NCBI GenBank assembly: GCA_019352195.1
Contig: JACAFG010000003.1
Location: 956-64,955, forward strand
Source of the DNA: Candidatus Saccharimonadota bacterium
GTDB taxonomy: Bacteria; Patescibacteriota; Saccharimonadia; UBA4664
Direction: 5' to 3'
Length of the DNA: 64,000 nt
The translations under genes and the position numbers were made by a program. Positions 41,405 through 63,307 of this stretch are shown here, piece by piece; the stretch's first letter is position 1; the number at the start of each line of letters is the position of its first letter. Below the pieces are notes generated by a model. It did no database searches and was not told the origin of the DNA. It saw only the letters and a program-made list of their open reading frames with translations.

Positions 41405-41440
41405 CAAAAAACCGCTGCCACGTTGCAGCGGTTTTTTTGA
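41405..41440. terminator. bidirectional rho-independent terminator (accgctgc-cacgtt-gcagcggt, flanked by A6 and T7)
   Basis: Perfect 8-bp stem with an A-run 5' and a T-run 3'. It serves the convergent genes ending at 41392 (+) and 41453 (-). Confidence 0.65.
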
Positions 41441-41452
41441 TGCCAACAATCC

Positions 41453-41710
41453 CTATTGAATGGCGATATAGAGTCCAATTTGACCCGACAGACCCAAAAG
41501 CGCTGCGACAATGAGCACAGCGTACTCAATTTTACGATCGATCTTGAAGTGGTCGTGGGTGGTAAGCATGAGGCCAATAATGAGGCCAATCGGAAATATT
41601 ACCAATCCATTAAATTTAATCCAGATACTACCAAAGACGAAGTAAATCAGGATTTTTAGAAAATAGGTACCGTTGGTTTCGGTGGTCGCTGCGGCGCGCT
41701 TTTTACTCAT
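41453..41710 (-). CDS. small 2-TM membrane protein (85 aa)
   Basis: Hydrophobic ORF. Confidence 0.4.
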   Translation of the reverse strand: MSKKRAAATTETNGTYFLKILIYFVFGSIWIKFNGLVIFPIGLIIGLMLTTHDHFKIDRKIEYAVLIVAALLGLSGQIGLYIAIQ

Positions 41711-41803
41711 GGTGGTATTAAAGCATAACCGTGATGAAATTGCGAGTCATAAGTCGTTACAGCATTGCGGCGCAAGTTAAGGCTCGTGATAAGCTAAATT
41801 CAT

Positions 41804-42349: not shown

Positions 42350-42497
42350 AGCGTAGTCGGTCGTGCGCGTAGCTGCCAGGGCTTAGGTTGATCTTATAGA
42401 TTTATTGCGATATTGATGTTATAGTACTACGGTTTAGTCCCTACGTCCGATTGGAGTTACCGTGGTATATCCGGGTACACTCAGCCCTTCACAAGTC

Positions 42498-43310: not shown

Positions 43311-43428
43311 TTTGTCCGCACAACCCAGATCTAGGGTGAAGCGCCAGTCGAACTTCGACGGGCGCTTTCCTTTGCCCAGAGCGACCGTATATCCGTGCGA
43401 TTATGGTTACGTGATTAGGTGTCTAGCA

Positions 43429-44640: not shown

Positions 44641-44769
44641 AGCTTAATTCTATCATACCTGTTCGGCTTTCGTTCGCAAATTGGTAGGCTAGAGTTGGCG
44701 CATTGGGTTGATCGCGAGGCGTGCCCCATCCGCAGGTCTGTCGTCGCTCGGCGGCCACCGACACACGAT

Positions 44770-45660
44770 CTAGTTTTTAACGGCGTCGATGAGGAGCAGC
44801 TGGCGACGTTCGAGGCGAACTGTGAGCGGCAGTTTCATCCGTTCGACTTCGCCGTCTAGACCAACCAATAAGGACCCGTGGCGCCTAGAATCAACTACCA
44901 GCTCCGAAGGATTGAACTGGTGAAACATGTCCATACTGCGAGTCGTACCCAAAGTGGTGCGCTAGGCTAGTTTTACGAGGTCAGCGCGTTTGTCGGAGTT
45001 TAGCGTATAGACACATAACTCACCTTTATCGACGTTTTCTCGCGCCACCAAGCCGAGGCGATCAATTTGATAATCATTATTGCCAATAAATACGAGTGGC
45101 GAGGTCACCTTGGTAACCTCGCCGTTAATCGTCAAATTTAGGCTAAACGTCTGATAGTGAATGAGAACCTTAACGCTGGCAATGGCGGCCGCCAGCATTT
45201 TGCCAATATAGGGCTGTATTTTCTCACGTTCAGTCACAAAGCGAGGATAAAATCCGAGCCCAGCGTTGTTTAAAAAAATTGATCCATTCACTTCGCCAAC
45301 ATCGACGCGGCGAGTCTGGCCTGATTCCAGCGCCTTGAAGATAGCTTCTAAATCGTTTGGCACGCCCAGATCTCTGGCAAAATGGTTAAAAGTTCCCCAT
45401 GGCAAGACGCCGAAGGCCGTTTTTGTCCCGGCCAACGATGAGGCCACGGAGCGCAAGGTGCCGTCGCCCCCTGCTGCTACTACCGCTTTATAGCCCGCGT
45501 CGCGCAGACGAGCTGTTTGGGCCACGATATCAGAGCCGGTAAGCACTACTTCCGCGTCCAGTTTATGCTCTGTAATGGTGCTATGGAGGAGTTTAATTCT
45601 TGCCAAAGTTACCGAACCAGAGCCGGGATTGATGATAAAAACGTAGCGCGGATGGGCCAT
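44770..45660 (-). pseudogene. YegS/DagK-family lipid kinase interrupted by an in-frame TAG
   Basis: ORF 44962..45660 (FIINPGSGS..., AAGGDGT catalytic domain) ends at TAG 44962-44964. The same frame continues ...DKRADLVKLA*RTTLGTTRSMDMFHQ...VGLDGEVERMKLPLTVRLE (ORF 44770..44952). This is the conserved C-terminal beta-sandwich. Confidence 0.65.
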
Positions 45661-46193
45661 TAGACTTGCCCCACTTTAATAATGAGAACGAGCACAAGCA
45701 GGCCCAGACACCAACCTCCCAAGATGTCAGTCGGATAATGCGCGCCAAGGTACACGCGTGAGAGGCCTATCATAATAATGAGTAAGGTGAACAGTAGCGG
45801 GATAACACTGTTCCAGACTTGGGCTAAATGGCCAGCCGCCAAAAAGGCCAACAGCCCATACATGACCAGGGAACCATAGCTGTGACCGCTCGGAAAACTG
45901 TAGGTGTGGAGGCCAAGTGCGGCGGCCGTATCGGGTCGGGTACGCTGCCATATCACTTTGATCAGGGCCGAAAACAATAAAGATCCCAACGCAGCCAGCG
46001 CCACGAGAGCTATGTTGTAGTGATGCTGCCAGAGCGTCGATCCTAGCAGGGCAAGACCAACTAACGTTACCGTTGCGGGGCGCCCGATAAGACTGGCGCC
46101 CGTCATAGCTGAGTCAAGCGATGACGGCCAGGTGCGAATTTGACGCGTGACCGCCAGATCGAAACGGCTAATTTGTGTGGTAATCGATTTCAT
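45660..46193 (-). CDS. PAP2-family phosphatase (undecaprenyl-diphosphatase / PgpB-like)
   Basis: KxxxxxxRP (KVIWQRTRPD), PSGHS and SRVYLGAHYPTD motifs. 5-6 TM helices. Confidence 0.7.
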   Translation of the reverse strand: MKSITTQISRFDLAVTRQIRTWPSSLDSAMTGASLIGRPATVTLVGLALLGSTLWQHHYNIALVALAALGSLLFSALIKVIWQRTRPDTAAALGLHTYSFPSGHSYGSLVMYGLLAFLAAGHLAQVWNSVIPLLFTLLIIMIGLSRVYLGAHYPTDILGGWCLGLLVLVLIIKVGQV

Positions 46194-46319
46194 CGTTACA
46201 TTATAAACCGATTTTTAGGCATTTTGGTTGGCCTCAAATGCCGCTTTGATGAGACATAATTCCGGCCGGTCAGGCTAAATGATTCGCGGCCACCGGAACG
46301 AGTCCGGTGGCCGCGCAGA

Positions 46320-47275
46320 TCAATTGTTACAGCGAACGCCGCGCCAGCCTTGGTTGCCGAGCCAAATGTCGGCAGCGAGGCCAGCAACTCGGCCATCAGG
46401 TCCGTCGATCTCGTCCCAAACGTTGGAGTACCAACCGGTAACGTTGCGAAGGTAACCCTCGCCGAAAACGCTGTTACCTTGGAGCTGACATTCTACGGTT
46501 ATGGGTTCGCCTTCGAGTGGCCGCCACCCGGTAGCAATGGGCGGGCCAGCCCAATAGTCGCCCGTGCAGCTTGCCGCTGCGCAACACGCCAAACTACGCT
46601 GCCACGCCCATCAAGCCGATATAGCCGGTGTTGGCAATATGAGCGTAGTTTTGCACGGCAACGACCAATACGTAGATGGCCAATAGACCAATCGTTCCTA
46701 AATACCAGGGATGCATGGTGATCGCAAAAAAGCTGGTTTTGTCACTCGCAAACGTGCTGACCCGCGGGCTCATGAGGCGTGGCAAGACATATAGGCAGCC
46801 GAAAATTCCGAGGGCCGAGACGATAAACGCACCCCACAGCGGCAGATGCGTGAGTGAGGCAATTTGCCTGGTATCGCCACCGGTGACAAACGGGGTGATG
46901 AACATGTAGCCAAAGCCGGTTTCGGCGCTCAAGAAGGCCACCCAAATAGCTAGCAACACACTAAACCCAGTAGCTGACGTCTATAAGAGCCAGCTTTTGA
47001 GCCACCAAATGGCTAGCAAACCTGATACGAGACTTAAATAGTGGGCCCGTGGCTAAACTTATGATGTCGTGGGCGTGAGAGGTGGCGTCGGGCGTAACGA
47101 CAAAGTTGGGATAGATAGTTGCCTGGGTTGCTCCCAATATTAGAGCTGCGACGAGATGCGATATTTCATGCAGCGTTGTTACAATCAAACCGGCTAAGAC
47201 AAAGGCGATGGTTGAATTGAGGATCGTTCGTTTTTGGGCAGGAGCGGAGATTTTGGATCTGGCGTTTGAGTTCAT
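46320..47275 (-). pseudogene. membrane HExxH zinc-metalloprotease-like gene with Cys/Trp-rich C-terminal ectodomain, split into three contiguous ORFs in three frames
   Basis: ORF A 46961..47275 (TM helix containing LHEISHLVAA). ORF B 46594..46959 (3-4 TM). ORF C 46320..46592 (CCAAASCTGDYWAGPP...WLGNQGWRGVRCNN, TTG start, no signal peptide). The ends abut with no intergenic space. Confidence 0.45.
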
Positions 47276-47395
47276 ATTGCTTGGGTTATGCGATGCGGAT
47301 GAATTTGTCGGCTTGTCGTTTATACATCATCCGCCACTGGTAATTCTTCCAAAATGTTGGTATAATGCACAAAATTATAGACAACAAGGAATATC

Positions 47396-48661
47396 ATGGC
47401 CAACATATCGGACCAAGGCCGCATTAAAGAACTTGAGTCCGAAGTAGCCAAACTCACTACGCAAGTCGAAACGCTTAAATTAGCGACCGAAGCTGCGCCC
47501 AAGCGAACTCGCTGGGGCTGGCGGACAAATCTCAGTACGGCACTGCTGGCGTTAGCACTCATCGTAATTGTTCCGACCGGCATGGTGATTTGGCTTAACC
47601 GCACCGTCCTACAGCCGAGCGACTATATTAAGACGGTTGGTCCTGTTATTCAGGCTCCGGAAGTACAACTCGCTATCCAGAAGACCGCCACCGATCAACT
47701 GTTTGCGCATGTTGACGTAAATTCGCTCGTTAGCAATGCTTTGCCACCGCAAGCGCAGTTTTTGGCTGGCCCTATTTCATCTCAAGTAAAAACCTACACC
47801 AATACTACGATTGGTACGATTGTGGCGAGTCCGCAGTTTGCTAAGGTTTGGATTGCTGCTAACACGCAGGCCCAGGCTACGTTCGTGAATATTGCTAAAA
47901 ATTCCAATGGTAGCCCAGACATTGATATCAGCCGTGTCTACACCTTCATCTCTGCCCAGCTGCAAGACACGCCGCTATCCATAATCGCCAATCGACCATT
48001 GCCGGCTAATATCGGCAGCATTAACATCGCCACCGTGCCCGCGCTCCAAACTATCCCCCACTATGTGACACTGCTCAACACGTGGCGCTGGCTGCTCATC
48101 GGCCTCGTGGTCGTATTGCTGGCACTAGCAATTGGCGTGAGTAAGAAACGGCGTCGCACGACCGTCCAAACGGGTATTGGCATTATCTTTGCCGGTGTCG
48201 TTACGTTGGCCGTTATCCGGATCGGCCGGGCAGCCATGATTGATCCCATCAGCGATCCCATTTACCGTAACGCTGCCGTATCGGTTTGGCACACTATTCT
48301 CACGCCGTTCTTTTGGCAGCTAGGTGTAATGGCACTCCTCGGAGCAGTAATCGCGCTGGTTGGCTGGCTGGCCGGTCCTGGTAAAGTGGCCACGACGGTA
48401 CGTACCGGCAGCGAAAACTTGTTGGCTAGTGGCCGAGTTGCCCTGCTACCGACCCTCAGCGAGAATACAGCTGTCGTATGGATGCGTCGTCACCGCTTGG
48501 CACTTCGTTGGACGGTTCTCGTTCTTACCGTGGTAACCCTTGGTTTGTTCGTACCTTTAAGTGTCGTTAAGCTTATCGTCATATTAGTGATCGCACTGAT
48601 CGTCTTCCTTGGCTTAGAGTTTGTGATTGCTGATTCCAACCTGCCCAAAACAGCCGCTTAA
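47396..48661 (+). CDS. large polytopic membrane protein (421 aa; N-terminal coiled coil, TM, about 190-aa ectodomain, 5-6 C-terminal TM)
   Basis: ATG start. Family not recognised. Confidence 0.5.
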   Translation: MANISDQGRIKELESEVAKLTTQVETLKLATEAAPKRTRWGWRTNLSTALLALALIVIVPTGMVIWLNRTVLQPSDYIKTVGPVIQAPEVQLAIQKTATDQLFAHVDVNSLVSNALPPQAQFLAGPISSQVKTYTNTTIGTIVASPQFAKVWIAANTQAQATFVNIAKNSNGSPDIDISRVYTFISAQLQDTPLSIIANRPLPANIGSINIATVPALQTIPHYVTLLNTWRWLLIGLVVVLLALAIGVSKKRRRTTVQTGIGIIFAGVVTLAVIRIGRAAMIDPISDPIYRNAAVSVWHTILTPFFWQLGVMALLGAVIALVGWLAGPGKVATTVRTGSENLLASGRVALLPTLSENTAVVWMRRHRLALRWTVLVLTVVTLGLFVPLSVVKLIVILVIALIVFLGLEFVIADSNLPKTAA

Positions 48662-48727
48662 AGCGTGCTTGCCACAAAATAATCCCTCGCAGCAGCGATG
48701 CTACGGGGGATTATTTTGTGGGCGGAA

Positions 48728-49276
48728 CTACTTAGCGGCGATAGCCGGGTCACCAGCACCGAGGCCAACTGCGAGAACAATTGGGCCCGAAACCAGAGCG
48801 TAGATACCAATTACCCAAACGTAGGCAACGCCTGCGCCAACTGGGTAGCGGAGCAAGACCAGACCGACCAAGAGGGCCAAAACGCCCGAAACAATCGATA
48901 GGGCTTTGTGGTTGCTGTTGCTACCAATAGCGGCAACGACATCAAACACACCGCGGAAAATGAACGTGAAGCCGACGAACAAGACGAGCGTTACGGCCGT
49001 CGTGCCGGGGTGATCGAGGATGTACGAACCGGCTGCAATAAACAATGCACCGAGAACGATTTCGCCGATCGAGGACCAACCAGCGTTTAGGTGGACGATG
49101 CCGCTAACTACGCCAACGACACCGGCGATGAGCGCGTACAAGCCAAAGATGCTGGCAAAGGTTACGGCGGTCATACCTGGCCAAACGATAGCTACGAGAC
49201 CAAAGAGGATAAGCAAGATGCCTTCCACAATATATGGCCAGTGGCTGTGACTATGAACGGTGGATATTGAGTCCAT
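48728..49276 (-). CDS. HdeD-family (DUF308) acid-resistance membrane protein
   Basis: Repeated GxxxG-rich helices (ILLILFGLVAIVWPG...FVGFTFIFRGVFDVVAAIG...). The track ORF extends to 49441. I place the start at MDSISTVHSH. Confidence 0.55.
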   Translation of the reverse strand: MDSISTVHSHSHWPYIVEGILLILFGLVAIVWPGMTAVTFASIFGLYALIAGVVGVVSGIVHLNAGWSSIGEIVLGALFIAAGSYILDHPGTTAVTLVLFVGFTFIFRGVFDVVAAIGSNSNHKALSIVSGVLALLVGLVLLRYPVGAGVAYVWVIGIYALVSGPIVLAVGLGAGDPAIAAK

Positions 49277-49562
49277 GGAGCCTCCAAAATATTTTAAGGT
49301 GATCCGGCGTTTGCTCTTTTGCTGAGCCACAATACACACAACACCGGCTCGTGTATTGTGTAAGCTCATAATGTACTCCTTGGGACGATGTGTCAAGCAA
49401 CATAAGGATATTTTCAGCAACTTTGGATCGTAACTGGGCAATTTCTATTTATTTGTTACTAACGCGTGACAGCATAATTACTGGCAAACCTCGCGAGGCA
49501 CCATGTCGAACGGCCGACCCCGGGTTTGGGATCGGCCGTTATTCAGACGAGGTTGAATCGTG

Positions 49563-49823
49563 CTAGCGGAGCCGTCCCGAGATCTTCCAGGCTAGCCATA
49601 CGGCTACTCTGGAAGCCACCAGCGCTAAGATGATAATGATGATCACTAGCACTGGGGTTAAATACCGGTAGGTCCGCCAACTTACGAAGCAGGCAATGAC
49701 GGTGGCACCGATCGCGCGGGCGAGCGCCTGGTACAGGTTGTCACGCCGCGTGCGCTTATCTTTGGCCCACTTCAGACCGGCCGCTACCTGCAGCTCGTCA
49801 AAGACCACTGGGCGCTCAGTCAT
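49563..49823 (-). CDS. small membrane protein (86 aa)
   Basis: The first of three consecutive minus-strand membrane ORFs. It overlaps the next ORF by 8 nt. Confidence 0.35.
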   Translation of the reverse strand: MTERPVVFDELQVAAGLKWAKDKRTRRDNLYQALARAIGATVIACFVSWRTYRYLTPVLVIIIIILALVASRVAVWLAWKISGRLR

Positions 49824-50304
49824 CGGGCAGCCCCAATCGAACTGCTCGTCGACCTTCGGTGTCTTGCCGTTTTTGATGCCGGTAATCCAGTGCAGAGGCC
49901 AGCGTGAGCAAGCTAAAAGCCGGGTAGATCAGCCAGAACGGCCAACTGAAGTTGGACCCGATCAGTGCGGTAAGCACTGTCACCAGGAAGACTGGCACGG
50001 TAAAGCGGCCGCCGTTTGGCAAGATCTGGAATAGCCAGGTGAGAAAACCCATTCCGCAGCTTGCGACGAGCGTGTAACCGACAATGAGCAGGAGTGCTGA
50101 TCTGGTTGCAATCGGATCTCTACTGATTGTCGAGCCAATCAGACCAGCGAAACCTCCCAGAACCAGACCCGTCAGTAGAGCGTTTCGCAGTTCGGTGCGA
50201 TTTTGACGTTTGCGTTCGGCCGCCGCCGCTCGCATAGAGCTGTCGTACTGCACGTCCGGCGTATTCAGGCCGGTTCTGGCATGGTGATCGTAAAGTTCGG
50301 GCAT
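49816..50304 (-). CDS. membrane protein (162 aa, about 4 TM)
   Basis: Hydrophobic. Confidence 0.4.
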   Translation of the reverse strand: MPELYDHHARTGLNTPDVQYDSSMRAAAAERKRQNRTELRNALLTGLVLGGFAGLIGSTISRDPIATRSALLLIVGYTLVASCGMGFLTWLFQILPNGGRFTVPVFLVTVLTALIGSNFSWPFWLIYPAFSLLTLASALDYRHQKRQDTEGRRAVRLGLPDD

Positions 50305-50307
50305 CGG

Positions 50308-50709
50308 TTAGCCTCTCAGACTCGAAGTGAACTGGGAACGGACTTCGGCGTTGTGGCGCATGCCAGCTCGCCGATCGAGATAGCAACCCATCAGCACCAA
50401 AGCGATGATGGCGCTGTAGAGCCAGCTGGTAGCCGGCAACATCTGAATGATGAGGGCAAGGATCAAGCCGATGGCCAACGCCACTTGCAGTAGTAAACCG
50501 TCATTGTAGAGCTTGCGGCAGCCGAAGCCGACGATCTCAAACCCGAACGCAAAACCCACAGCAACCAGAGCTGCGGGCAGCCCGTAGGACGGATGGTGAT
50601 GGGTGGCGAAACCGGCGGTCCAAAACAACAGTCCGTAGAGCGCGCCCGTAACGACGTACGACAAGGCAAACAACACCGGGTTGGCAATTTTGGGGACATT
50701 ATGTGTCAT
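50308..50709 (-). CDS. membrane protein (133 aa, about 4 TM)
   Basis: Hydrophobic. Only 3 nt from the previous ORF. Confidence 0.4.
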   Translation of the reverse strand: MTHNVPKIANPVLFALSYVVTGALYGLLFWTAGFATHHHPSYGLPAALVAVGFAFGFEIVGFGCRKLYNDGLLLQVALAIGLILALIIQMLPATSWLYSAIIALVLMGCYLDRRAGMRHNAEVRSQFTSSLRG

Positions 50710-50950
50710 GTTCTATGCCATTCTTGAGGGCGGCAGGTAGCCGCAGCAGATGAAACAGCGTCAATCATACGATACTATATTTCAGTGTTTTGTCAATGAA
50801 TCGTGCCTTTTCTTTGCCGATGCCAAAACCACCACAAGCACTCACCTATCTGTTAAATATTGGGGTTAGTCACCTGATAAATTTGGTATATCTGGCGGTG
50901 ATGCCAACTACGACTCACGGTAAGATACGCCGGTAACCAAGGAGGTCCAC

Positions 50951-51187
50951 ATGGCAAATACGAAGACATCAGACGGTCGCGGTAATTTTGGCGATCCCGA
51001 AGAGCACGCGCGAGCGGGCAAAGCGGGTGGTGAGGCTACAGCCAAAAATCACGATAAGACTTTTTACGAAGAAATTGGCCGTGAAGGCGGCAATGCCTCG
51101 TCTGGCTCGTTTGAAAAAGGCGATCAGCGCGCCGTCGACGCTGGCCGCAAAGGTGGCAAAAACTCATCGGGTAATAGCAACTCCTAG
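50951..51187 (+). CDS. KGG-repeat general stress protein (YciG/GsiB-like)
   Basis: GRKGGKNSSGN and GREGGNASSG KGG-type repeats. Strong RBS AAGGAGG. Confidence 0.6.
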   Translation: MANTKTSDGRGNFGDPEEHARAGKAGGEATAKNHDKTFYEEIGREGGNASSGSFEKGDQRAVDAGRKGGKNSSGNSNS

Positions 51188-51260
51188 ATCCTGCCTGAAA
51201 TTCCACAGCCAAACGGTCGACTCCGCGAGAGTCGGCCGTTTGATTATGATCGCTGGCGCG

Positions 51261-51824
51261 CTAAACTGAGCGATCGTTGCCCAGCGTTGTATGGATGTCG
51301 CCTTCCGATACGCCTGGGTCGCGGCCACTTAGGCCCAAAATCTTAGCCGATACGTCGGCGTCATCTGAAACTGGTACGACGGGACCAACCGCATCGGAGT
51401 TGGCCAGTTGGTATGCCCGTGGCAGCATAAAGTCATAGGCAAACTGCACTACTTTGGGGTCCATCACTTGGCTGCGGCCAAGTGCGCCGTTGAGATCCCA
51501 TAAGTGCAGCAAACGGTCGCCCGTCTGCGCCGCTAGACTGGTCGCCATAGTCTCGTCGGCAGTTTCGGCTAGTTCTTCGGCGGCTTCGGCAATTTCAGTC
51601 CAGCGCTCGGCGGGCTCTTCGCCCAGCACGTCGGTACCTGGTTCCGCTGTCATGTGCGCGCCTTCGGTGAGGGACAAATTATTGAGCGCCACGTGGTTTA
51701 CGAGCTCGCGCACACTCCAATCAGGCGTGCTGGGGACCATCTCTTCCCATTGTTCATCATCAATCATATTTACCGCATCGGTAAAAGCCTGATCGGCTCG
51801 TAAAAACATTTCCGCTTCGCGCAT
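51261..51824 (-). CDS. DinB_2 / mycothiol-maleylpyruvate-isomerase N-terminal-domain (TIGR03086-like) protein
   Basis: WSVRELVNHVALNNL... LLHLWDLNGALG... The four-helix DinB-like N-domain is typical of actinobacterial TIGR03086 proteins. Assigned from memory of the family. Confidence 0.45.
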   Translation of the reverse strand: MREAEMFLRADQAFTDAVNMIDDEQWEEMVPSTPDWSVRELVNHVALNNLSLTEGAHMTAEPGTDVLGEEPAERWTEIAEAAEELAETADETMATSLAAQTGDRLLHLWDLNGALGRSQVMDPKVVQFAYDFMLPRAYQLANSDAVGPVVPVSDDADVSAKILGLSGRDPGVSEGDIHTTLGNDRSV

Positions 51825-52505
51825 AACAGTCCTTTGGTTAGGCCTTAATCGTAGCTTTCTAGGCGCTTACTAGCTTTGTGAAGAGTTACAAGTTTTGAAC
51901 TCACTGGTCGCTTGGATATGCGTCTCTAGCTCTTATTTCCTGAGCGGGTTATCATTCGCTGATGAGGACTTGGAACAAACTTGGTTTGGGATCGTCTGGC
52001 GATTCTGGCACCGAGCCCAGCGACAGCGCCGCGCCGGCCGAAGATATGAGCCGGTCGCACGAAGTGATTCACGATTCTAGCGGCGACGCCTACTGGGAAC
52101 AATTTGAGTCGGCCATTGAGCATCTAAGCGCCAAAGAATTAAACGACCTCAATTACCGCTTGGGAGCCGGCGTGGCTGACTTTTCAAACTGGCACGACTA
52201 TGTCGACGTGTTTTGTAAGTACGAGTGGTATCAGTTTTGCGAGGCTTATCATTGGGCGACTGGGACGAGTTTTAGTTTGGAAAGCTGACGGATTTATCTT
52301 CCGGCCATATTTTATCAAACATTAGCCACGAGCCTATTTATGGCCCTTGGTCTGACTCGGTAAAAACGGTCGAGGCGCACTCGCCACTGATATTTGTGAC
52401 CCGCTTTCTGGTCGAGCTAGATGGCGACAACAGCCCAACTAACCATAGCTGTCAGGCTAAGTTGACGTAAAAAGCCATATGAAGCCTTACATGGACCGCG
52501 ATTTC

Positions 52506-52531
52506 AAAAACCCCGCTCTCGCGGGGTTTTT
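52506..52531 (-). terminator. rho-independent terminator after rpsJ (ccccgctctcgcgggg + U-run)
   Basis: Perfect 6-bp GC stem flanked by A5 and T5. Confidence 0.6.
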
Positions 52532-52537
52532 GGTCGA

Positions 52538-52873
52538 CTACATCTTAATTTCGATGTCCACACCTGCGGGCAGGTTGAGGTTCATCAGGGCATCGATGGT
52601 CTTGGGGGTGGGCTCGGTGATGTCGATGAGGCGCTTGTGAGTGCGCATCTCAAACTGTTCACGAGCGGTTTTGTAGACGTGTGGGCTACGCAATACCGTG
52701 GTGACGGTGCGGTCGGTGGGCAGCGGGATGGGGCCTGCAACAACGGCGCCGGTACGGATAGCGGTGTCGATGATTTGCTTGGCGCTTTGGTCGATTACTT
52801 TCGAATCGTAAGCCTTAAGACGGATACGAATGCGTTGCTTCTCGGGGGTTGCGGGGGTGGTGGCTGCGGCCAT
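52538..52873 (-). CDS. rpsJ: 30S ribosomal protein S10 (orphan, with 12-aa N-terminal extension)
   Basis: [73 protein letters not shown]... Confidence 0.9.
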
Positions 52874-53060
52874 GTGATGGAAACTCCTGGTGCTCTACCG
52901 TAATCTCTTCGCGGAGTGAAAAGGCGTACTGCCTGTGACCGGACGAGTTCTCGGTAGGTGATTTAGTATTACTGAGCGATATTATAACCGTGAAAAACCG
53001 GCTTTACAAGGCTAAGGGCCCCGCACTCGATAGAATGCAGGGCCCTGGGGGCCAGTTGGG

Positions 53061-53804
53061 TTAGGATGAAACGCGGTTGTCGGCCAGTACTTGGCCCATC
53101 ATATTGGGTGGCAGCAACGCGCAGATTTGCCAGCTGGTGGCCGTACCATCAAACTGGGACTCTACCGACAGCGCGTCGCCAAACAGGTGCTGCCAGCCGG
53201 ATTTGAGCTCGGCCTTGGCCGTTACCAGCGCCCGCAATCGGCCACTGGTGAGCTGGCGTAGGTTGGGCGATTCGCCGACGAACTCAATCCATACGCTCAG
53301 CTCGTCGTTGCCGTTGCAGATGGTGGTGTCTCGAACATAATGTTGTCGCCCCGGCCAAGCGTCATCGGCCTTCACCTTGGCACGGCCGACATTGGCCAGA
53401 AAATGCGACGCCAGCTCGGGATCGAGACCCAGCCCGGCAAACAGGTCGGTGACATCGGCGTCGTCTACCGCGATGGTGTCGTTGTAGCGTTTTACCTCGG
53501 CCGCCAGAGCCGCAAACATACCGCTGTGGAGTTGGCGATGTTCCCAATACCGCGCCATCATGTCCAAGTAATCCTGGGAGATGTCAGGTAATAGCACCGG
53601 TATTACTTTGTAGCCGGGGTAGCTGGAGGCGAGTGCTCGAAGACACCATTCGATACTATCCGCCAATGGTGGAGACCAATACGCGCCTGGTACATGTGGC
53701 AGAAGCCGAGGTGGCCAAACTCCAACGAGAAGGCCATTTGTAATTACCGGCCTAAAACGAATACTGCCTACCCGATGTGTCCGTAGTTCCCTTCGTACAG
53801 ACAT
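53061..53804 (-). CDS. hypothetical protein (247 aa), high-GC cargo
   Basis: No motif recognised. The start is uncertain; an internal ATG at MMARYWEHRQ would give 165 aa. Confidence 0.35.
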   Translation of the reverse strand: MSVRRELRTHRVGSIRFRPVITNGLLVGVWPPRLLPHVPGAYWSPPLADSIEWCLRALASSYPGYKVIPVLLPDISQDYLDMMARYWEHRQLHSGMFAALAAEVKRYNDTIAVDDADVTDLFAGLGLDPELASHFLANVGRAKVKADDAWPGRQHYVRDTTICNGNDELSVWIEFVGESPNLRQLTSGRLRALVTAKAELKSGWQHLFGDALSVESQFDGTATSWQICALLPPNMMGQVLADNRVSS

Positions 53805-53812
53805 GACCCACC

Positions 53813-54268
53813 ATGAAGTTTCTCGTATCAGATGTCGACACCGCCCGGCACGTGCTGGCGCTCGACCGACATCAGTCGCGCCACCCAGAGCTGTCGGCCG
53901 ATTTGGAGGCTGAATTCAAAGAGATGCGCCGGAAGTCGTCCGACAAGTACCTGCCCAAACGTCTGACCTATCTGGTGGACAGAGCCATCCAAAAGGCGGT
54001 CTTCAGCTACCGCCACGGACGCGACGCCAGTTTCGACATCGTGCTGGGCCGTTCCGACCGCAGTTACATCCGCGAGGTCGGTTGGGCCACCGACGAGCTC
54101 CACGTTCTGCTCGACCGCGATAGGCTCACGCTGAGGTTCGACTGGGACCTGGACGGCCTGCTCCGCGCTATCCGGGTGCAGCTGTTGCTTCCGACCGACG
54201 TACCCACCAATCTGACGGAGACCGTACTGGCCAGCCTATCGGCCAACGACGGCGGCGGCGACAGCTGA
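53813..54268 (+). CDS. hypothetical protein (151 aa), divergent from the previous gene
   Basis: ATG start. Only 8 bp separate the two divergent starts. Confidence 0.35.
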   Translation: MKFLVSDVDTARHVLALDRHQSRHPELSADLEAEFKEMRRKSSDKYLPKRLTYLVDRAIQKAVFSYRHGRDASFDIVLGRSDRSYIREVGWATDELHVLLDRDRLTLRFDWDLDGLLRAIRVQLLLPTDVPTNLTETVLASLSANDGGGDS

Positions 54269-54469
54269 ATCGCTACCCGGCGGAACCACCTTGTAAGAGG
54301 CTGGTTCCGCCGGGGATTTTGTCTTTTAGCATAAGTTCTAAAAAACTATTGACTCTAGACCTCGAAAGTTGTATTTTTTGATAGGTTTATACGCCTGAAG
54401 TTTGATGGCGGAACCACGCAGTACCTGCTGAGGCAATCCTTTGCAGACGTCCTAGAATAAGGACTGTAC

Positions 54470-55000
54470 ATGACCACCCTGGTAGCACCTGCCGGACGTA
54501 TGGCCAGCCTCACATCCGATAACAACGTTGTCATGTCGCACCGCCAAACGGCCGCCGCTCGGGCCGCCGCGCAGCAAGCTGCTCACCTCGAGCGTATCCG
54601 TGAGCATCTCCCCGAGATGATCACCCATGCGATCGAGCTCGCGCTTCAGCATGGTGACAGGCTGAACGCTGCCTGCGCCAAGCAGAAGCGTTCGGTCCCC
54701 ACCGCGCGCTGGCTGGCCTACAGTATCAATTTCGGCATGTTCCGCCAACTCACCCATCTCACGCTGTGTGAGGCCAAGACTGCCGAGCTCACCAAGATGG
54801 CGGCGGACATCGTCGTGGCCAGGGAGAAGGCCGACAAGGCGGCCAAGGTGGCCGACGACTCGGCCGTCGCCACCACCCCCGACAGGCTCACCGTGACCGT
54901 GTCGCGCACCGGCCTGTCGCTCACCGTCAGGTTCAGCCAGAAGTACCCGTCCAAGACCAACCAGGTCGCCACCAAGACCACAACCAAGACCTCCGCCTGA
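54470..55000 (+). CDS. hypothetical protein (176 aa; Ala/Lys-rich helical, Thr/Lys C-terminal tail)
   Basis: Preferred over the overlapping Gly-rich minus-strand ORF 54452..55213. Confidence 0.35.
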   Translation: MTTLVAPAGRMASLTSDNNVVMSHRQTAAARAAAQQAAHLERIREHLPEMITHAIELALQHGDRLNAACAKQKRSVPTARWLAYSINFGMFRQLTHLTLCEAKTAELTKMAADIVVAREKADKAAKVADDSAVATTPDRLTVTVSRTGLSLTVRFSQKYPSKTNQVATKTTTKTSA

Positions 55001-55127
55001 CCCATCCCATCTACCCTGATGGAGCCGCCTCAACCGAGATGGCTCCATCAGGAGTTTTGCTTTTATGGGGCTAAATAGCTTAAGGGCCCGCATCCGAGGT
55101 GGATGCGGGCCCTTTGAGGCAATGGGG

Positions 55128-55559
55128 TTATTCGCCCCAAGTAATGATGGCACACCACCCGGTTTCGAGGTTGGGGCCGTAGAACTTGATCCGGGCAACG
55201 GACACGTCGCCAAAGATGGCCTGCCACGTGTCGATATTTTCTTGACGAACCACTTCGCTCACGTATGTCACGTGATGTCCGAACGGCCGCGTGATCGTAA
55301 GTGCGGCATCTGCGCCGTGTTCCGGCAAGGCCGGAAATGGACAGGACATGAGGGAGGTGAGACGGCGCTGCTGAGCGCCAAATTCGACGGTGAGGCGCAC
55401 GGCCAAGGTGCATTCGTCTGCGGGGACGTAGCCTTCGGCGGGTTTGTGGCCGTTCATGCGCCACAAGATCTCGTCGATATCGGCGGTCACACCGTGGTAC
55501 GAAACCACATCGATGGTGCCAGTTGCCGGCGAGGCAACGACGGTTGATGTAGGGGTCAT
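55128..55559 (-). CDS. hypothetical acidic protein (143 aa)
   Basis: Overlaps the upstream gene by 4 nt (ATGA), which suggests a coupled pair. Confidence 0.4.
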   Translation of the reverse strand: MTPTSTVVASPATGTIDVVSYHGVTADIDEILWRMNGHKPAEGYVPADECTLAVRLTVEFGAQQRRLTSLMSCPFPALPEHGADAALTITRPFGHHVTYVSEVVRQENIDTWQAIFGDVSVARIKFYGPNLETGWCAIITWGE

Positions 55560-56035
55560 TTGGAGCCTTCCAGAGACGTAGGGGCATTGAGTCCGGTCGA
55601 CGGGTCGTCAGCCAGTGGCGGAAACAGTACAAACGTCTGCAGTTCGAGCTTGTCGGGGTCGTGCCCCACTTCAATGCGGTCGCAATCGCCAAACAGGCGG
55701 TTCCATCCAAAGATGTTGTGGCAGGTGCGGAGCCTTTCGATGAGCTCGGCGTCGTCGTCGATCTCGAGTTCGCCCGTGGCAATGGTGAGACTGGCCAAAA
55801 CAATCTGGCTGTCGGCGGCCAGGCGATATGGGGCCGAGAGCAAACCGGTGATCTTTTCACCGTCTACTTCGATGTCGACGGCCAACCAGTGCGACAAGTC
55901 GTCGGGGTCAAACGGGCGGGCTTCGCCCACACCGGCCAATACGTCGATGATGCACGTGACTTCTCGTTGCTGGGTTGGAATGCAGGCCCGGATGGCGAGT
56001 CGGCGGCGCTGTTGTTTAATAGTTGCTTCAGTCAT
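55556..56035 (-). CDS. hypothetical acidic protein (159 aa)
   Basis: The first gene of a two-gene unit downstream of the tuf terminator. Confidence 0.4.
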   Translation of the reverse strand: MTEATIKQQRRRLAIRACIPTQQREVTCIIDVLAGVGEARPFDPDDLSHWLAVDIEVDGEKITGLLSAPYRLAADSQIVLASLTIATGELEIDDDAELIERLRTCHNIFGWNRLFGDCDRIEVGHDPDKLELQTFVLFPPLADDPSTGLNAPTSLEGSK

Positions 56036-56100
56036 GACGGATCTTTCTGCCGGGAACGTTTGACTTGCTTATTAAATACTAATTTAGTATATTTTGCAAC

Positions 56101-56126
56101 AAAAAAGAGCCTTGCGGCTCTTTTTT
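56101..56126 (-). terminator. rho-independent terminator downstream of tuf (agagccttgcggctct flanked by A6/T6)
   Basis: Read directly from the sequence. Confidence 0.6.
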
Positions 56127-56258
56127 GTGTTCTAAAGAACTTTGTACGTGAGTGCAGTCCTTGGCAGATCGAGGATCGTAAGCGAGGCGTACTATATGGT
56201 ACGTCGAGCGCGAACCGGAAGATCTAACGACGGAATGTGCCAGGTACGAAGTTCGAAA

Positions 56259-57443
56259 CTACTTGAGGATCTTGGTAACAACACCGGCACCAACAGTACG
56301 GCCACCTTCGCGGATAGCAAAGCGCAGGCCCTCTTCCATGGCGATTGGAGCGATGAGCTCAACCTTCATAGAAATGTTGTCGCCAGGCATAACCATCTCT
56401 ACGCCTTCAGGCAAGATAACGGCACCGGTAACATCGGTTGTGCGGATGTAGAACTGTGGCTTGTAGCCCTTGAAGAATGGGGTGTGACGGCCGCCTTCAT
56501 CTTTTGAGAGCACGTAAACTTCAGCTTCAAAGTCAGTGTGAGGAGTGATTGAACCGGGCTTAGCCAAAACTTGGCCGCGCTCGATGTCGTCGCGCTCAAT
56601 ACCGCGGAGCAAAGCACCCACGTTGTCGCCAGCCTGAGCGTCTGGGAGCAACTTCTTGAACATTTCTACACCAGTAACGGTGGTGTTCTTAGTGGGGCGG
56701 ATGCCGACGATTTCAACAGGATCGTTGACTGAGACTTTTCCCTGCTCGATACGACCGGTAGCAACCGTACCACGGCCCTTGATCGAGAAGACGTCTTCGA
56801 TAGGCATGAGGAACGGTTTGTCGATTTCGCGCTTGGGTTCTGGGAAGTAGTCATCCATGGCCTGAACGAGTTCGAGGACAGACTTCTCGGCATCAGCGTC
56901 GCCTTCAACAGCCTTGAGAGCCGAGCCCTTGATGACCGGAACGTTATCGCCATCGTAGTCGTACTTCGAAAGTAGTTCGCGGATTTCCATCTCGACGAGT
57001 TCAGCGAGTTCTGGGTCGGCCATGTCCATCTTGTTCATGAAGACAATGATGTTCGGAACACCAACCTGCTTGGCGAGCACAACGTGCTCACGAGTCTGAG
57101 GCATCGGACCATCGGCAGCTGACACAACGAGCACGGCGCCGTCGATCTGGGCAGCACCCGTGATCATGTTCTTAACGTAGTCGGCGTGACCAGGCATGTC
57201 GACGTGAGCGTAGTGGCGCTTTGCGCTCTCGTACTCTTGGTGCGAGGTCGCGATGGTAATACCACGCTGGCGCTCTTCGGGAGCGTTGTCGATTTGGTCG
57301 TAGTTAACGGCCTTGTTGATGTCGGACGGGAGGTGCTTAGCCAGCACCATGGTGATAGCCGCGGTCAAAGTGGTCTTACCGTGGTCCACGTGGCCCATGG
57401 TACCAACGTTGAGGTGCGGTTTGTTGCGCTCAAATGTTGCCAT
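56259..57443 (-). CDS. tuf: elongation factor Tu
   Basis: [22 protein letters not shown]. 394 aa. Confidence 0.95.
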
Positions 57444-57691
57444 TTTAAAACTCCTTTAATTGTTCCAATCCAGATGGCTGATCGCAAACTGCGATGTGGC
57501 CTTCGAGCTGGCGGGCCAGCAATCTGCCTTGGAACGAACAGTTAATCTATAAGTTGCTCAAGCATAAAAAGATGCCCGAAAAGGACCCTCGTATTATACG
57601 GAAAACGACCGTGCTTTGTAAAGGGTTTGGGGCTTTAAAACGAAGAAGCCGCCGACAAAATGTCAGCGGCTGGTGAAATGATGGTCCGGGC

Positions 57692-57732
57692 GGCCCATCG
57701 AGTGTCCGGGGGGGGTAGACTCTCGATGGGCC
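57692..57732. repeat. 15-bp-stem hairpin (ggcccatcgagtgtc / gactctcgatgggcc, loop cggggggggta) in the fusA-tuf spacer
   Basis: Read directly; one mismatch in the stem. Confidence 0.5.
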
Positions 57733-57893
57733 GCTGGGCTAGCCAACATAGCCGCGGCGGTGGCGGTTGGACTAGCAGACGATACGAGTAGGACGTGCCA
57801 GGTGGATCGGTGGGATCCATGGGCACCTGTGTTCAGGTCCAGTCGTATCGTTGTGGGCTGCGCGTCGGAAGCGCAGCCGGCAGGGAAGTTTGT

Positions 57894-57936
57894 GGACCGG
57901 CTGCCTACAATTACGTAGGTTGCTGGCAGCCGGTCC
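57894..57936. repeat. REP-like 13-bp inverted repeat tggaccggctgcc ... ggcagccggtcca. The GGCAGCCGG core recurs at 57872, 58134 and, inverted, 58192
   Basis: Read directly from the sequence. Confidence 0.5.
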
Positions 57937-58778
57937 AGAGAAGGACGATCCAGCATGGACCGAACTTCTGGGGAGAGAAGCGGCCTGAGAGGCCGTCTAG
58001 CGCTTCGAGCAGGTGGGCGTCACCCGTGCGAAGGTGCAGCCAAAGGCCGCCTCTCTCACCCGATGGACGCAGCAGAGCCGGCATAGCTCAACTGTATCCG
58101 TTTGTGGGGCACTGGCATTTAAGCCAGAAGTCGGGCAGCCGGGTCGCATGAAACGGCCCATTCGAAAGTTAATTCGTGGCCCTCGGTGGAGCCCGGCTGC
58201 CTTATTTCAGAGAACAGTAGATCAGCCCAGCGCAATGCCGTTCCGCCACCTGACTAACGACGTCCAAAATCCAGCCCAGAACTGCTGGTTTGCCTGTGCG
58301 GGGAATTCGGGAGTATCGTCTCTCTGAAAAAGCCTAAGGTCTATTTACAAACGAGTGGTCAAAGTGCATTTCTACAAAACAATTTGGCTTTCGCTTACGT
58401 TGCTTTGTAATTTCTATAGTACTCCGCTCAATTTTGAGCGTCAACCAGTAAAACCACGGGTAATACTATGTATTTATTATACATTTTTTACACTTCTTTG
58501 TCAAGGTACGATTAATGCCTTGGCTAAGCTTAAATCGCCTATAACTCTCGTGCTTGCTTATCGTCGCAATTATCGCCTGGCCATATTAGTGAAAACACCC
58601 CAGACGCTTGTCTAGGGTGTTTTCACTAACTTCGGGTTGCCTCTCTATCCTTGTCCCCGGCTTTATCCGGCAAGCGTAACAAGACGACGAGGCGAAAGGG
58701 CTCAGGAGTTGCGCCGGCGAGATTGGCCTATCGACAGACAATACGGAGCGGACGAGAACCGTAGCAGGTCGGGTTAAG

Positions 58779-60860: not shown

Positions 60861-60985
60861 GGTGGTAGTTGGTTATCCTTTATTGGGTTAGATCGGCGCA
60901 AATGAAAACAGCGCCGACGCACTGATTAGTTCAAATTGTACCTATATCTGTTACTAAACGCAAGGCGTGGCCACAAGATACGTCA

Positions 60986-61014
60986 TTGACGCGGGTTAGG
61001 GATTGCTGTAGAAT
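60986..61014 (+). promoter_or_regulatory. near-consensus sigma-70 promoter TTGACG - 17 nt - TAGAAT
   Basis: ttgacgcgggttagggattgctgtagaat lies about 85 nt upstream of the 61098 ORF. Confidence 0.5.
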
Positions 61015-61097
61015 TTCGGACGATTCAAGTTGCGCGGCAATTTGGTTCGCTCCACCTCATGTCTTTTCAATCCATCTATCGCGACCGAGAGGAACCC

Positions 61098-61313
61098 ATG
61101 AAGTGCAAGAATAGGAATAAGGGCTGTCATAATAATGGCTCGATGGCCAATGACGGCTACTGCGGACCATGCCACAGGAGAGCCTCTCCGACTGACAAAA
61201 GTGCTGCCAGAGCCCTTGGTGAGCTGTTCACCGCTCAGGCCCGCCAGGCCCGCGACAACAACACCACGTTCGGCCTCACTCCTCGACCGGCGCAGTCCAA
61301 GCGGTGGTGGTAA
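61098..61313 (+). CDS. small zinc-ribbon-like protein (MKCKNRNKGCHNNGSMANDGYCGPCH...)
   Basis: A CxxxxxC...CxxC arrangement. RBS GAGGAA before the ATG. The track ORF begins 13 codons earlier. Confidence 0.4.
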   Translation: MKCKNRNKGCHNNGSMANDGYCGPCHRRASPTDKSAARALGELFTAQARQARDNNTTFGLTPRPAQSKRWW

Positions 61314-61458
61314 CTGTAGTCACTTGGGCGCGTTTGCGTCATGACCGGCTCGCCGCTCGTTGTTCTTCCGTTCTTCGCCAACCCTGAGCTCCGGCTCGTT
61401 TTGGCAGCCCCGTCACTGTAATGGTGACGGGGTGATTTGTTTGTTAGTGATGATGGTT

Positions 61459-62375
61459 ACCCTGAATCTAAAAACCCCACCCCATCTGATATCCCAACAA
61501 GATCAGTACGTCATGCAACATGTAGCCGTCCCGGCTCCGCGGAAAAGAGCTGACTAAGTTTAGGTGTTCTTTCAGATAGTCAAAGGTGCATTCAACTTTC
61601 ACCCGGGCCGCCAGGAGCTTCTGTTGCCATCGGGCCATAACCTGGGCTTTCTGTTTGTAGTGAACGGGCGCCACTACGATGACACCCTGGTCTCGCCAGA
61701 GTCGTTTGCGGGCGATCTTATCACCGTAGTGGCTATCGCCGACCACGATCTTCGTCTCTGACCGTACCAGCCGGGGTGTAACGTGCCCGTCGTAGACATC
61801 GGCCGGTGTAAAGGTGACATTGCTGAGTCGTCCCTCCAGATCGACCGCAGCATGGATCTCAAATCCAAACCAGGCTCCTTGCCAGTTGTAGCCCCAGCCA
61901 GCGAGGCCAGCGGCGACTTTGTAGCGGTTCTGCCGGTGATCACGACACACCGGCAGTTTGGTGGAGTCCACCAGCCGCACTTCGGCCGGAACCAAGGGCT
62001 GCCCGAGGAGCTGGGGCAGCTTCGGCAACAGCCGGTGACAATGGGCCACAAATGCTCCATACGTACCAAGCTGTGGTACATCCGGATGATGGTACAGAAG
62101 GGCCCATTTGAAGATATCCTTGAGAGTACGCTGACAAGTATTAGAAAGACAGTTCCAGATGAGGAGGGTGATGATTTCACTGTTACGAGCCAGTTTGAGC
62201 CGGCCACCCTTCGGGCGGGCCGGCTCCGAAACGGTGTCGTCTATGACCACAAATAATCTACGATATGATGAGGCTGCAAAGAGCGCCTTTGGTATTCCTT
62301 GTTTGTGTTACAACTACAAGCTTACCAAGGCGCTTTTGCTTTGTTAACGGGTAATGAGGTTTTTAGATTCAGGGT
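61459..62375 (-). mobile_element. IS982-family insertion sequence (917 bp) with perfect 18-bp terminal inverted repeats ACCCTGAATCTAAAAACC
   Basis: Left IR 61459-61476 and right IR 62358-62375 are exact reverse complements. A single transposase ORF lies inside and ends within the IR. Confidence 0.8.
61468..62250 (-). CDS. IS982-family DDE transposase
   Basis: VDSTKLPVC ... FEIHAAVDLEGRL ... KVECTFDYLK. The DDE triad spacing and the C-terminal LLGYQ motif are typical of IS982. Confidence 0.75.
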   Translation of the reverse strand: MVIDDTVSEPARPKGGRLKLARNSEIITLLIWNCLSNTCQRTLKDIFKWALLYHHPDVPQLGTYGAFVAHCHRLLPKLPQLLGQPLVPAEVRLVDSTKLPVCRDHRQNRYKVAAGLAGWGYNWQGAWFGFEIHAAVDLEGRLSNVTFTPADVYDGHVTPRLVRSETKIVVGDSHYGDKIARKRLWRDQGVIVVAPVHYKQKAQVMARWQQKLLAARVKVECTFDYLKEHLNLVSSFPRSRDGYMLHDVLILLGYQMGWGF

Positions 62376-62465
62376 GGATATTGTTGATTTATTGCATCAT
62401 TCGTGGTATTAATTGCCTATCTCACGATTTACTCATGATCCACTCACCTTTGGAAAGGCCTACTT

Positions 62466-62888
62466 ATGAGTACACCGGGGGAGCTCCCCACAACTAGTAC
62501 CGATGAGATTCTCATCGTGGAAGCTGCCGGCATTCTCGGAGTCTCCACCGGCACCGTTTATTCCATGGTTCGGGACGGGCGCCTCATTCGCCGCACCAAT
62601 TCGCATGGTGGCCTGGTCTTCGTGCGCTCAGAGCTCGAAGCCACCCGGCTTGATCGCGACGAGCGAGCGCATGTCGATACCATCAGGGACAATTTGCCGG
62701 ACAGCCTCAGGGTTGCCCATGCCAAACTGCCGCGTACCACGATCTCCCCAGTGAGGTGGGCACCGAACGGTGACTACTCGAGCCTTCGTCTACCCAAAAT
62801 GATCTGGCGTACTGGGATGCCAGTGCCAGTATTTCTGCCGTCGTGCGGCGGCTCGAAAGGAATAGGTCATGAACGATCTCTCGTATAG
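62466..62888 (+). CDS. excisionase/MerR-type HTH (HTH_17) DNA-binding protein, paralog 1 (140 aa)
   Basis: ILIVEAAGILGVSTGTVYSMVRDGRLIRR. Confidence 0.6.
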   Translation: MSTPGELPTTSTDEILIVEAAGILGVSTGTVYSMVRDGRLIRRTNSHGGLVFVRSELEATRLDRDERAHVDTIRDNLPDSLRVAHAKLPRTTISPVRWAPNGDYSSLRLPKMIWRTGMPVPVFLPSCGGSKGIGHERSLV

Positions 62889-63093
62889 CGAAAATCTGCT
62901 CACTCCCGGTGAAGTGGCCTTATTGTTTCGGGTCGACCCCAAAACGGTCTCTCGTTGGGCCGCGGCCGGCCGCATTGGCTGCATCCGGACGCCCGGCGGA
63001 CATCGGCGTTTCCGTGAGAGTGAGGTCAACGCCTTGTTGGCCGTGCGTTTGAAGGGAGCAGCAGACGATGGATGCCAACTCGCCCCCGTCTGA
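62869..63093 (+). CDS. BldC-like small MerR-family regulator (HTH_17), paralog 2 (74 aa)
   Basis: LLTPGEVALLFRVDPKTVSRWAAAGRIGCIRTPGGHRRFRESEVNALLA closely matches the Streptomyces BldC core as I recall it (LLTPAEVATMFRVDPKTVTRWAKAGKL..IRTLGGHRRYREAEV). Confidence 0.6.
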   Translation: MNDLSYSENLLTPGEVALLFRVDPKTVSRWAAAGRIGCIRTPGGHRRFRESEVNALLAVRLKGAADDGCQLAPV

Positions 63094-63307
63094 TGACTAC
63101 GATTTTTTGACCACCACAGAAGCGGCCACAATCCTCCGAGTGAGCAAGGCCACCATCTGGCGTTTGATTGACTCGGGCCGGATGAAGGCTTATCGCGTTC
63201 GTCGATCCTGGCGTATTTCGCGAGCCGACCTCGAGGATTTCATCAAAGTCGGCCTGCACGATCCAGATAACGATCCCACTACGGCGTACGGAACGAGACA
63301 CTCATGA
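63068..63307 (+). CDS. excisionase-family HTH (HTH_17) DNA-binding protein, paralog 3 (79 aa)
   Basis: FLTTTEAATILRVSKATIWRLIDSGRMKAYRVRRSWRISRADLEDFIK. Confidence 0.65.
   Translation: MDANSPPSDDYDFLTTTEAATILRVSKATIWRLIDSGRMKAYRVRRSWRISRADLEDFIKVGLHDPDNDPTTAYGTRHS

Follow-up and report, generated by a model that had tools for sequence, protein, structure and literature searches.

The DNA analysed here is a stretch of 64,000 nucleotides (called the window throughout) of contig JACAFG010000003.1 from an uncultured Candidatus Saccharimonadota bacterium (assembly GCA_019352195.1), and the part in question is the DNA between tuf, which encodes EF-Tu, and rpsJ, which encodes ribosomal protein S10. 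The two genes lie 3,385 bp apart, and the interval holds five coding-like open reading frames (ORFs), named A to E. The five ORFs are real genes as judged from their codon usage, and orphan genes as judged from homology searches, known from one metagenome-assembled genome (MAG). The interval is very probably accessory cargo specific to the strain, at a hot spot that the whole clade has in common; the cargo would have been built up by local duplication (A, D and E) and by the later insertion of a segment with B and C. Throughout this clade of soil Saccharibacteria the str-S10 cluster (fusA, tuf, rpsJ, rplC) is dissolved into separately transcribed genes, and the gaps between them hold genome-specific cargo. 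The tuf-rpsJ junction is not a sacrosanct adjacency, and the value of the finding is mostly corrective and contextual.

Five orphan genes and the paralogy of A, D and E

Coding potential was scored as a codon-usage log-likelihood, for which 29 ORFs of the window served as the training set (a dozen of them checked with Pfam, the others long ORFs of the ribosomal cluster). Gene A (53061..53561, minus strand; 166 aa, isoelectric point (pI) 5.3) scored 0.23 bits per codon, B (53813..54268, plus strand; 151 aa, pI 6.2) 0.30, C (54470..55000, plus strand; 176 aa, pI 10.1) 0.37, D (55128..55559, minus strand; 143 aa, pI 5.1) 0.32 and E (55556..56035, minus strand; 159 aa, pI 4.5) 0.40, and the training genes scored 0.36 ± 0.13. 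For each of the five the annotated frame was the best of six and the GC content of third codon positions (GC3) was well above that of second positions (GC2), whereas the long alternative ORFs that overlap them scored at most 0.04 bits per codon. One contig (L002) of a Logan assembly made independently from the same run likewise has tuf, E, D, C, B, A and rpsJ in this order; misassembly is unlikely because this second assembly gives the same gene order. The layout proposed in the first-pass annotation, five ORFs in a gap of about 3.3 kb, is borne out.

The start of gene A had to be moved. In the 247-aa form, which is the longest ORF, the first 81 codons have a GC3 of 0.44 and a negative coding score (-0.27), whereas GC3 is 0.72 and the score +0.23 in the remaining 166 codons, and the NCBI annotation calls A as 166 aa (start at 53561). 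The 247-aa form is probably wrong, and the 166-aa form is favoured on these sequence properties. The tight divergent pair of A and B that had been described at first, with starts 8 bp apart, was an artefact of the longest ORF; a divergent spacer of about 251 bp (53562..53812), earlier read as the N-terminus of the 247-aa form, lies between the two genes.

None of the five proteins had a match in Pfam, PADLOC-DB v2, PHROG or NCBIfam at E ≤ 1, in agreement with the earlier reading that no known domains are recognisable. Searches of 5.8e9 proteins by k-mer matching and HMMER (with E alone, with an alignment of A, D and E, and with an alignment of B and C) returned self-matches only. An exhaustive hmmsearch with the A/D/E profile against 1.84e9 representatives retrieved A, D, E and one other protein, P0006, a eukaryotic multi-cystatin of 1,411 aa, which was rejected: its score adds up about 12 weak repeat matches that are nearly identical, none of which is significant alone (0 stretches). 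Searches of PDB sequences with the A/D/E profile, B and C gave weak matches to 8bau_A and to a multicystatin only, and the latter (4lzi_A, E 0.24 with the A/D/E profile) is the same repeat artefact. A cystatin-like identity of A, D and E was rejected, as only multi-repeat cystatins were hit, no single stretch was over the threshold and the Pfam Cystatin model did not match. There was no match in phage (50,697 records) and/or plasmid (72,556) sequences, either by blastn with the interval or by tblastn with A, B, C and E, and none in scans of IMG/VR with the A/D/E alignment, B and C. A literature search by assembly and run accessions found no paper. The protein families of A-E are new in the trivial sense of having no relatives, and orphan accessory genes at an operon boundary are a well-known kind.

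Within the interval, A (166 aa), D and E are related to each other. Smith-Waterman comparisons (2,000 shuffles) gave z = 7.5 for A and E, 5.1 for D and E and 3.9 for A and D, whereas every pairing of one of them with B or C gave z ≤ 1.6. BLASTP aligned A and E with 27% identity over 128 residues (E 1e-5), and when the 603 ORFs of the window were compared, the best or near-best non-self match of each of A, D and E was another of the three. They have in common the motif G-W-x-x-[LI]-F-G-D, which is visible in the DNA as a 23-nt repeat at 53176, 55207 and 55686. On this evidence the three proteins are paralogs. B and C are unrelated to A, D and E (hhalign probability 0.2%), and the similarity between B and C is marginal (shuffle z 2.7). 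Single-chain AlphaFold2 (AF2) models were of low confidence, with a predicted local distance difference test (pLDDT) score of 41 for E and 58 for B. A Foldseek search with the B model gave no significant fold match.

B and C each gave one lead. Residues 9-81 of C resemble residues 38-98 of an HTH_17 protein encoded at 62466..62888 (BLASTP E 5e-4, shuffle z 6.2), and the similarity runs from the C-terminal end of the HTH_17 match of that protein onwards. C itself is without the helix-turn-helix part: no remnant of it was found upstream in any frame, and Pfam PF12728 did not match. B has a weak colinear match to the NADAR protein of PDB entry 8bau_A (B residues 38-117 against 39-117, E 0.18) and aligns in the same register with Escherichia coli YbiA (BLASTP E 0.019 for this single comparison). 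A NADAR or YbiA identity of B was rejected as unproven, since Pfam PF08719 did not match and the shuffle z to YbiA was 1.5.

In composition the five genes fall into two classes. GC is 57.9% in the interval, against 53.9% in the window, 54.9% in tuf and 57.7% in rpsJ; the value of about 63% given for the interval in the first-pass annotation is approached only by B (62.5%) and C (64.2%). GC3 has a mean of 0.61 in the window (standard deviation (sd) 0.07), and the values of B (0.81) and C (0.84) are the highest in it, about 3 sd above the mean, whereas A, D and E (0.63-0.72) are compositionally ordinary; all five genes have host-like codon scores. B and C also lie on the strand opposite to A, D, E, tuf and rpsJ. 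C had been described as rich in Ala and Lys, of which Ala stands (17.6%) and Lys does not (6.2%). Two other ORFs of the window are compositional outliers, a 206-aa ORF at 11491-12111 (minus strand; GC 39%, GC3 0.36, far under the window mean) and the Metallophos gene at 42585-43310 (GC3 0.79), which is on the plus strand like B and C.

The genes of the interval are arranged in four transcription units (E-D, C, B and A), because each unit has its own promoter or terminator signals. The cargo begins behind the intrinsic terminator of tuf (56099..56128, minus strand; inverted repeat I8), which has a 13-bp stem and a U-run (-18.9 kcal/mol, z -6.2). A promoter-like site of E, TTGCAA-17-TTTAAT at about 56089..56061 (minus strand), was seen by eye and not flagged by the promoter scan. 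E is the first gene of a bicistron: its stop overlaps the start of D in an ATGA at 55556-55559, and a Shine-Dalgarno-like motif, GGAAGG, stands 6 nt upstream of the ATG of D; the earlier description of a coupled pair of small acidic proteins holds. A hairpin with a perfect, GC-rich 14-bp stem and no clear U-run follows D (55082..55114, minus strand; I6; -30.8 kcal/mol, z -7.1). On the plus strand, C has a promoter-like site from the promoter scan (TTGACT-17-TATTTT, 54349..54377) and an intrinsic terminator (55015..55056; I5; fold z -4.7), and B is followed by an intrinsic terminator at 54276..54314 (I7; -34.3 kcal/mol, z -6.2), both terminators being found by the terminator scan. Gene A is followed by a hairpin with a 14-bp stem, again with no clear U-run (53015..53046, minus strand; -31.9 kcal/mol, z -4.8). 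By eye the hairpins 3′ of A and D look similar (AGGGCCCTGCAT...GCGGGGCCCTTAGC and AGGGCCCGCAT...GCGGGCCCTTAAGC, respectively), a likeness in sequence which suggests that gene and terminator were duplicated jointly. Altogether, tuf, D, C, B, A and rpsJ each have a stable hairpin on the 3′ side, and the fold z values lie between -4.7 and -7.1.

The downstream edge of the cargo is the promoter of rpsJ, TTGTAA-17-TATAAT (53009..52981, minus strand; 10/12 match in the promoter scan), which is followed by a 5′ leader (52874..52980, minus strand) with a conserved hairpin motif, CGAGAACTCG (alignments A4 and A5). Both the promoter and the leader motif are conserved in the related loci L004, L005, L090 and L091. 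The variable cargo can be placed between about 53010 and 56098, because the promoter and leader of rpsJ are kept in these relatives. In L004, L005 and L090 the ORF listings show the motif as ATG-CCG-AGA-ACT-CGG (M-P-R-T-R), which is in frame with S10; the window is without that leader ATG, and therefore the conservation may be at the RNA level. The leader could be a regulatory leader. As for the flanking genes, tuf (56259..57443, minus strand) matches the GTP_EFTU, D2 and D3 domains of Pfam (E 3e-63) and has a promoter with an 11/12 match in the promoter scan (57622..57593, minus strand), and rpsJ (52538..52873, minus strand) matches Ribosomal_S10 (E 6e-37) and is monocistronic here, with a terminator at 52505-52532 on the minus strand (inverted repeat I9; fold z -5.1). 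In a search of 185,579 species-representative genomes the best matches of both genes were Saccharibacteria MAGs.

The tuf-rpsJ junction and the break-up of the str-S10 cluster

Ten loci of the same clade, with tuf identities of 73-89%, were compared with the window by tblastn, phmmer and a family hidden Markov model (HMM). None of them holds a relative of A-E by any of the three methods, and their own cargo ORFs gave nothing at E < 0.2. The gap between tuf and rpsJ varies from about 7 bp to 1.13 kb. It is about 7 bp in L003 and 22 bp in L086, both with no content, so that the two genes are contiguous in these relatives, a comparison which had been proposed at the outset. It is 240-475 bp in L087, L089, L091 and L092 (no cargo ORF was identified) and about 650 bp in L004 (no long ORF). 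Three loci hold a gene at the site, a different one in each case: an orphan gene of 146 aa in L005 (gap 890 bp), an orphan gene of 281 aa in L090 (gap 1.05 kb) and, in the closest relative L085 (tuf identity 89%, gap 1.13 kb), a gene for a pyrimidine-dimer DNA glycosylase at 4205-4828 on the plus strand (Pfam Pyr_excise, E 2e-26). L085 comes from the soil metagenome Ga0318562 and has no fusA upstream of tuf. The same five genes with housekeeping homologues across the lineage were looked for and were not found, and the view that A-E are accessory genes is upheld by their absence from all ten loci.

The first-pass annotation had taken it that rpsJ lies next to tuf in nearly all bacteria. This could not be sustained in a wider survey, in which rpsJ served as bait for fetching loci and the stretch that separates the tuf end from rpsJ was measured. 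In 51 other genomes tuf stands upstream of rpsJ, and the gap has a median of 451 bp in them; it is below 150 bp in only 7 of the 51 and at least 500 bp in 21, and in several it is 1.1-7.8 kb (the largest being 7.8 kb). A further 13 loci had no tuf inside the available flank. In E. coli K-12, 17 genes (chiA, bfd, bfr and the gsp cluster gspA..O) stand between tufA and rpsJ over 16.9 kb. The 3.4-kb gap of the window is large but not exceptional, because tuf and rpsJ meet at a boundary between operons, where additional genes are frequent; nor does the site stand out within the clade, in which every junction of the str-S10 cluster is open.

The other two junctions make this plain. The gap between fusA and tuf is 0.66-5.4 kb in the clade compared to 45-240 bp in other phyla, and the gap between rpsJ and rplC is 0.9 kb to more than 10 kb in the clade (including L004, L005, L085, L086, L090, L091 and L092) compared to 16-280 bp in about 70 other genomes. 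In the window the latter gap measures 11.5 kb (40972-52538) and contains genes with DinB/MDMPI, KGG, DUF308, PAP2, DAGK, MgsA and Metallophos domains. The cargo between fusA and tuf is also specific to the genome: a PALP (pyridoxal-phosphate enzyme) gene was found in L004 (6646-7893, minus strand) and in L005 (5178-6710, minus strand), and three ORFs without a Pfam domain in L086 (6420-8589).

Upstream of fusA, neither rpsG nor rpsL was found in the window (60861-63307). A DDE_Tnp_1 transposase gene (61468..62250, minus strand) and three consecutive HTH_17 genes (62466..63307, plus strand) are found there, and a Mur ligase gene comes after them. On its 5′ side, too, the str operon is therefore broken, beside an insertion sequence (IS) element, the transposase and HTH_17 genes standing in the place of rpsG and rpsL.

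The 1.3-kb gap between fusA and tuf in the window (57444..58778) has no called gene and contains a structured element on the minus strand (57640-58510). It contains the only perfect TTGACA-17-TATAAT sigma-70 promoter of the window (58504..58476; 0 expected by chance). Behind the promoter come about 780 nt of GC-rich sequence that is non-coding and consists of long, nearly perfect hairpins, and a strong terminator (57671..57647) comes next. The sequence GGCAGCCGG was found four times in the window, all inside this element. No Rfam match was found at E ≤ 10, and no similar DNA in the relatives. The element may represent either a large structured RNA that has escaped annotation or clustered palindromic DNA repeats; an explanation by RNA only is not favoured, because stability is similar on both strands (the RNA fold z is -11.5 for the minus strand and -6.5 for the plus strand).

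Explanations of the interval

Two layers can be told apart in the cargo because composition and orientation differ. The first layer would consist of A, D and E, three paralogous small acidic soluble proteins which are co-oriented with tuf and rpsJ, have host codon usage and most likely arose by local duplication. The second would be the high-GC3 segment with B and C on the opposite strand, which most likely arrived later between D and A. As C is kin to part of an HTH_17 protein of the mobile-element type beside the IS transposase 7 kb away, the insertion of B and C may be related to a mobile element. For the function of A, D and E, protein binding or neutralisation seems the most plausible, because the proteins are small, acidic, soluble, duplicated and lineage-restricted and have no enzyme-like motif. 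They would act by binding another protein and neutralising it, as orphan immunity or anti-effector proteins do, with B and C as unrelated passengers; such an immunity-like role is possible but rather doubtful. Taken whole, the explanation as cargo together with this neutralising mechanism is one towards which we lean only slightly. If A, D and E did have an immunity or anti-effector role, they would be a new family and would hint at the way in which Saccharibacteria withstand attacks by their host or neighbours.

Several points weigh against this explanation. The order of events, first duplication and then insertion of B and C, is inferred from composition and orientation, and the binding or immunity role is reasoned from the character of the proteins. 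Among the ORFs of the 40-64 kb region Pfam found no toxin gene, toxin C-terminal cassette, secretion marker or Imm/SUKH-type domain; the domains found were ribosomal, DinB/MDMPI, KGG, DUF308, PAP2, DAGK, MgsA, Metallophos, transposase and HTH_17 domains only. There are no insertion scars, integrase or tRNA target in the interval that would support acquisition. Structure prediction failed (for E and B, as given above). As the genes come from a single genome, selection on them cannot be measured, and they may be young genes that are expressed but functionless.

An unlikely alternative is that an integrated mobile element, for example a prophage or a small integrative element, has decayed in this interval and that A-E are its leftover cargo. 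The compositional deviation and opposite strand of B and C agree with such an origin, and so does the segment that C has in common with the HTH_17 protein adjoining the DDE transposase and two more HTH_17 genes (61468..63307). The hallmarks of a genomic island are missing, however: Pfam found no integrase domain in the interval, the flanking direct repeats whose presence had been suggested for checking did not rise above chance, the nearest tRNA is more than 34 kb away, and the DDE transposase is 5.2 kb away, beyond fusA. Neither the DNA nor the proteins matched the phage records, plasmids or IMG/VR, and the host-like codons of A, D and E speak against such an element.

The reading suggested in the first-pass annotation, that the interval is a self-contained immunity, antitoxin or small defence module, is quite unlikely; in it, the acidic D and E would counteract a toxic or effector partner, which A or B would encode. 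It could draw on the small size, acidity and translational coupling of E and D, on the restriction of the genes to one lineage and their variable spot, and on the weak colinearity of B with a NADAR protein (E 0.18), as NADAR domains are antitoxins that reverse ADP-ribosylation. Yet D and E are paralogous to each other and to A, which leaves no distinct toxin candidate among the three and does not resemble a toxin with its antitoxin; the genes are split over four separate transcription units and two classes of composition rather than forming one system; the tight divergent pair was a product of ORF calling; the NADAR lead fails both the Pfam model and the comparison with YbiA (z 1.5); and no model of PADLOC, Pfam, NCBIfam or PHROG matched at E ≤ 1.

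Some or all of the ORFs could also be non-functional, being either chance ORFs in GC-rich DNA or young transcripts without a role. Homologs are missing from everything that was searched, the AF2 models have low confidence and the high-GC DNA gives many overlapping ORFs here, all of which would fit. Against this, the coding scores are in the range of real genes in the frame that is the best of six, while the overlapping ORFs score about zero or below; there is paralogy at the protein level with a conserved motif, and each transcription unit has a dedicated terminator hairpin. We regard this alternative as very unlikely.

A bolder variant makes the interval a new self-contained protective module of an episymbiotic Saccharibacterium (Saccharibacteria are obligate episymbionts). 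A, D and E would be acidic neutralisers of a family not seen before that diversify by duplication, B a NADAR-like hydrolase that has degenerated and C a regulator descended from a mobile-element HTH_17 protein, all kept in a "safe harbour" between highly expressed translation genes; this is highly improbable. That A-E are lineage-specific translation-associated factors co-regulated with tuf and rpsJ is scarcely credible, since nothing favours it but the location of the five genes between two translation genes and the orientation that A, D and E share with these, while terminators and own promoters set the five genes apart from tuf and rpsJ, every relative compared lacks them (including the one with an 89% identical EF-Tu) and this closest relative has a gene for a DNA-repair glycosylase at the same site.

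Comparison with known systems

Among individual proteins, C is comparable to the HTH_17 (excisionase/MerR-like) proteins of mobile elements over a stretch of about 70 aa, and differs from them in that it has no helix-turn-helix and no Pfam HTH_17 match. B differs from NADAR/YbiA proteins in that the FSNF and YWG-type motifs seen in YbiA are missing and its AF2 model had no NADAR match. The E-D pair resembles a type II toxin-antitoxin system in having two small genes with an ATGA overlap and a single promoter region and one terminator around the pair, but both products are acidic and paralogous, and neither a toxin fold nor a helix-turn-helix (HTH) or ribbon-helix-helix (RHH) antitoxin domain was found in them.

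The orphan immunity-gene arrays of polymorphic toxin systems (SUKH/SMI1-KNR4, Imm) consist of small, acidic, cytoplasmic proteins that are locally duplicated and variable between strains. A, D and E are alike in being small, acidic, cytoplasmic, locally duplicated and strain-variable; they differ in that they match no immunity family of Pfam, have no toxin or secretion domain nearby and are not contiguous as a group of three.

At the level of the operon, the str operons of cyanobacteria and plastids have rps10 behind tufA, apart from the rplC cluster. The separation of rpsJ from rplC (by 11.5 kb in the window) is a likeness to these operons, but here rpsJ is also severed from tuf by a terminator, the cargo and a promoter of its own. 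The nearest parallel in position is E. coli K-12, in which the chiA-bfd-bfr-gspA..O genes are non-ribosomal cargo exactly between tuf and rpsJ. Its cargo consists of annotated metabolic and secretion genes, whereas the cargo of the Saccharimonadota genome consists of five orphans, and in this clade the fusA-tuf and rpsJ-rplC junctions are open as well.

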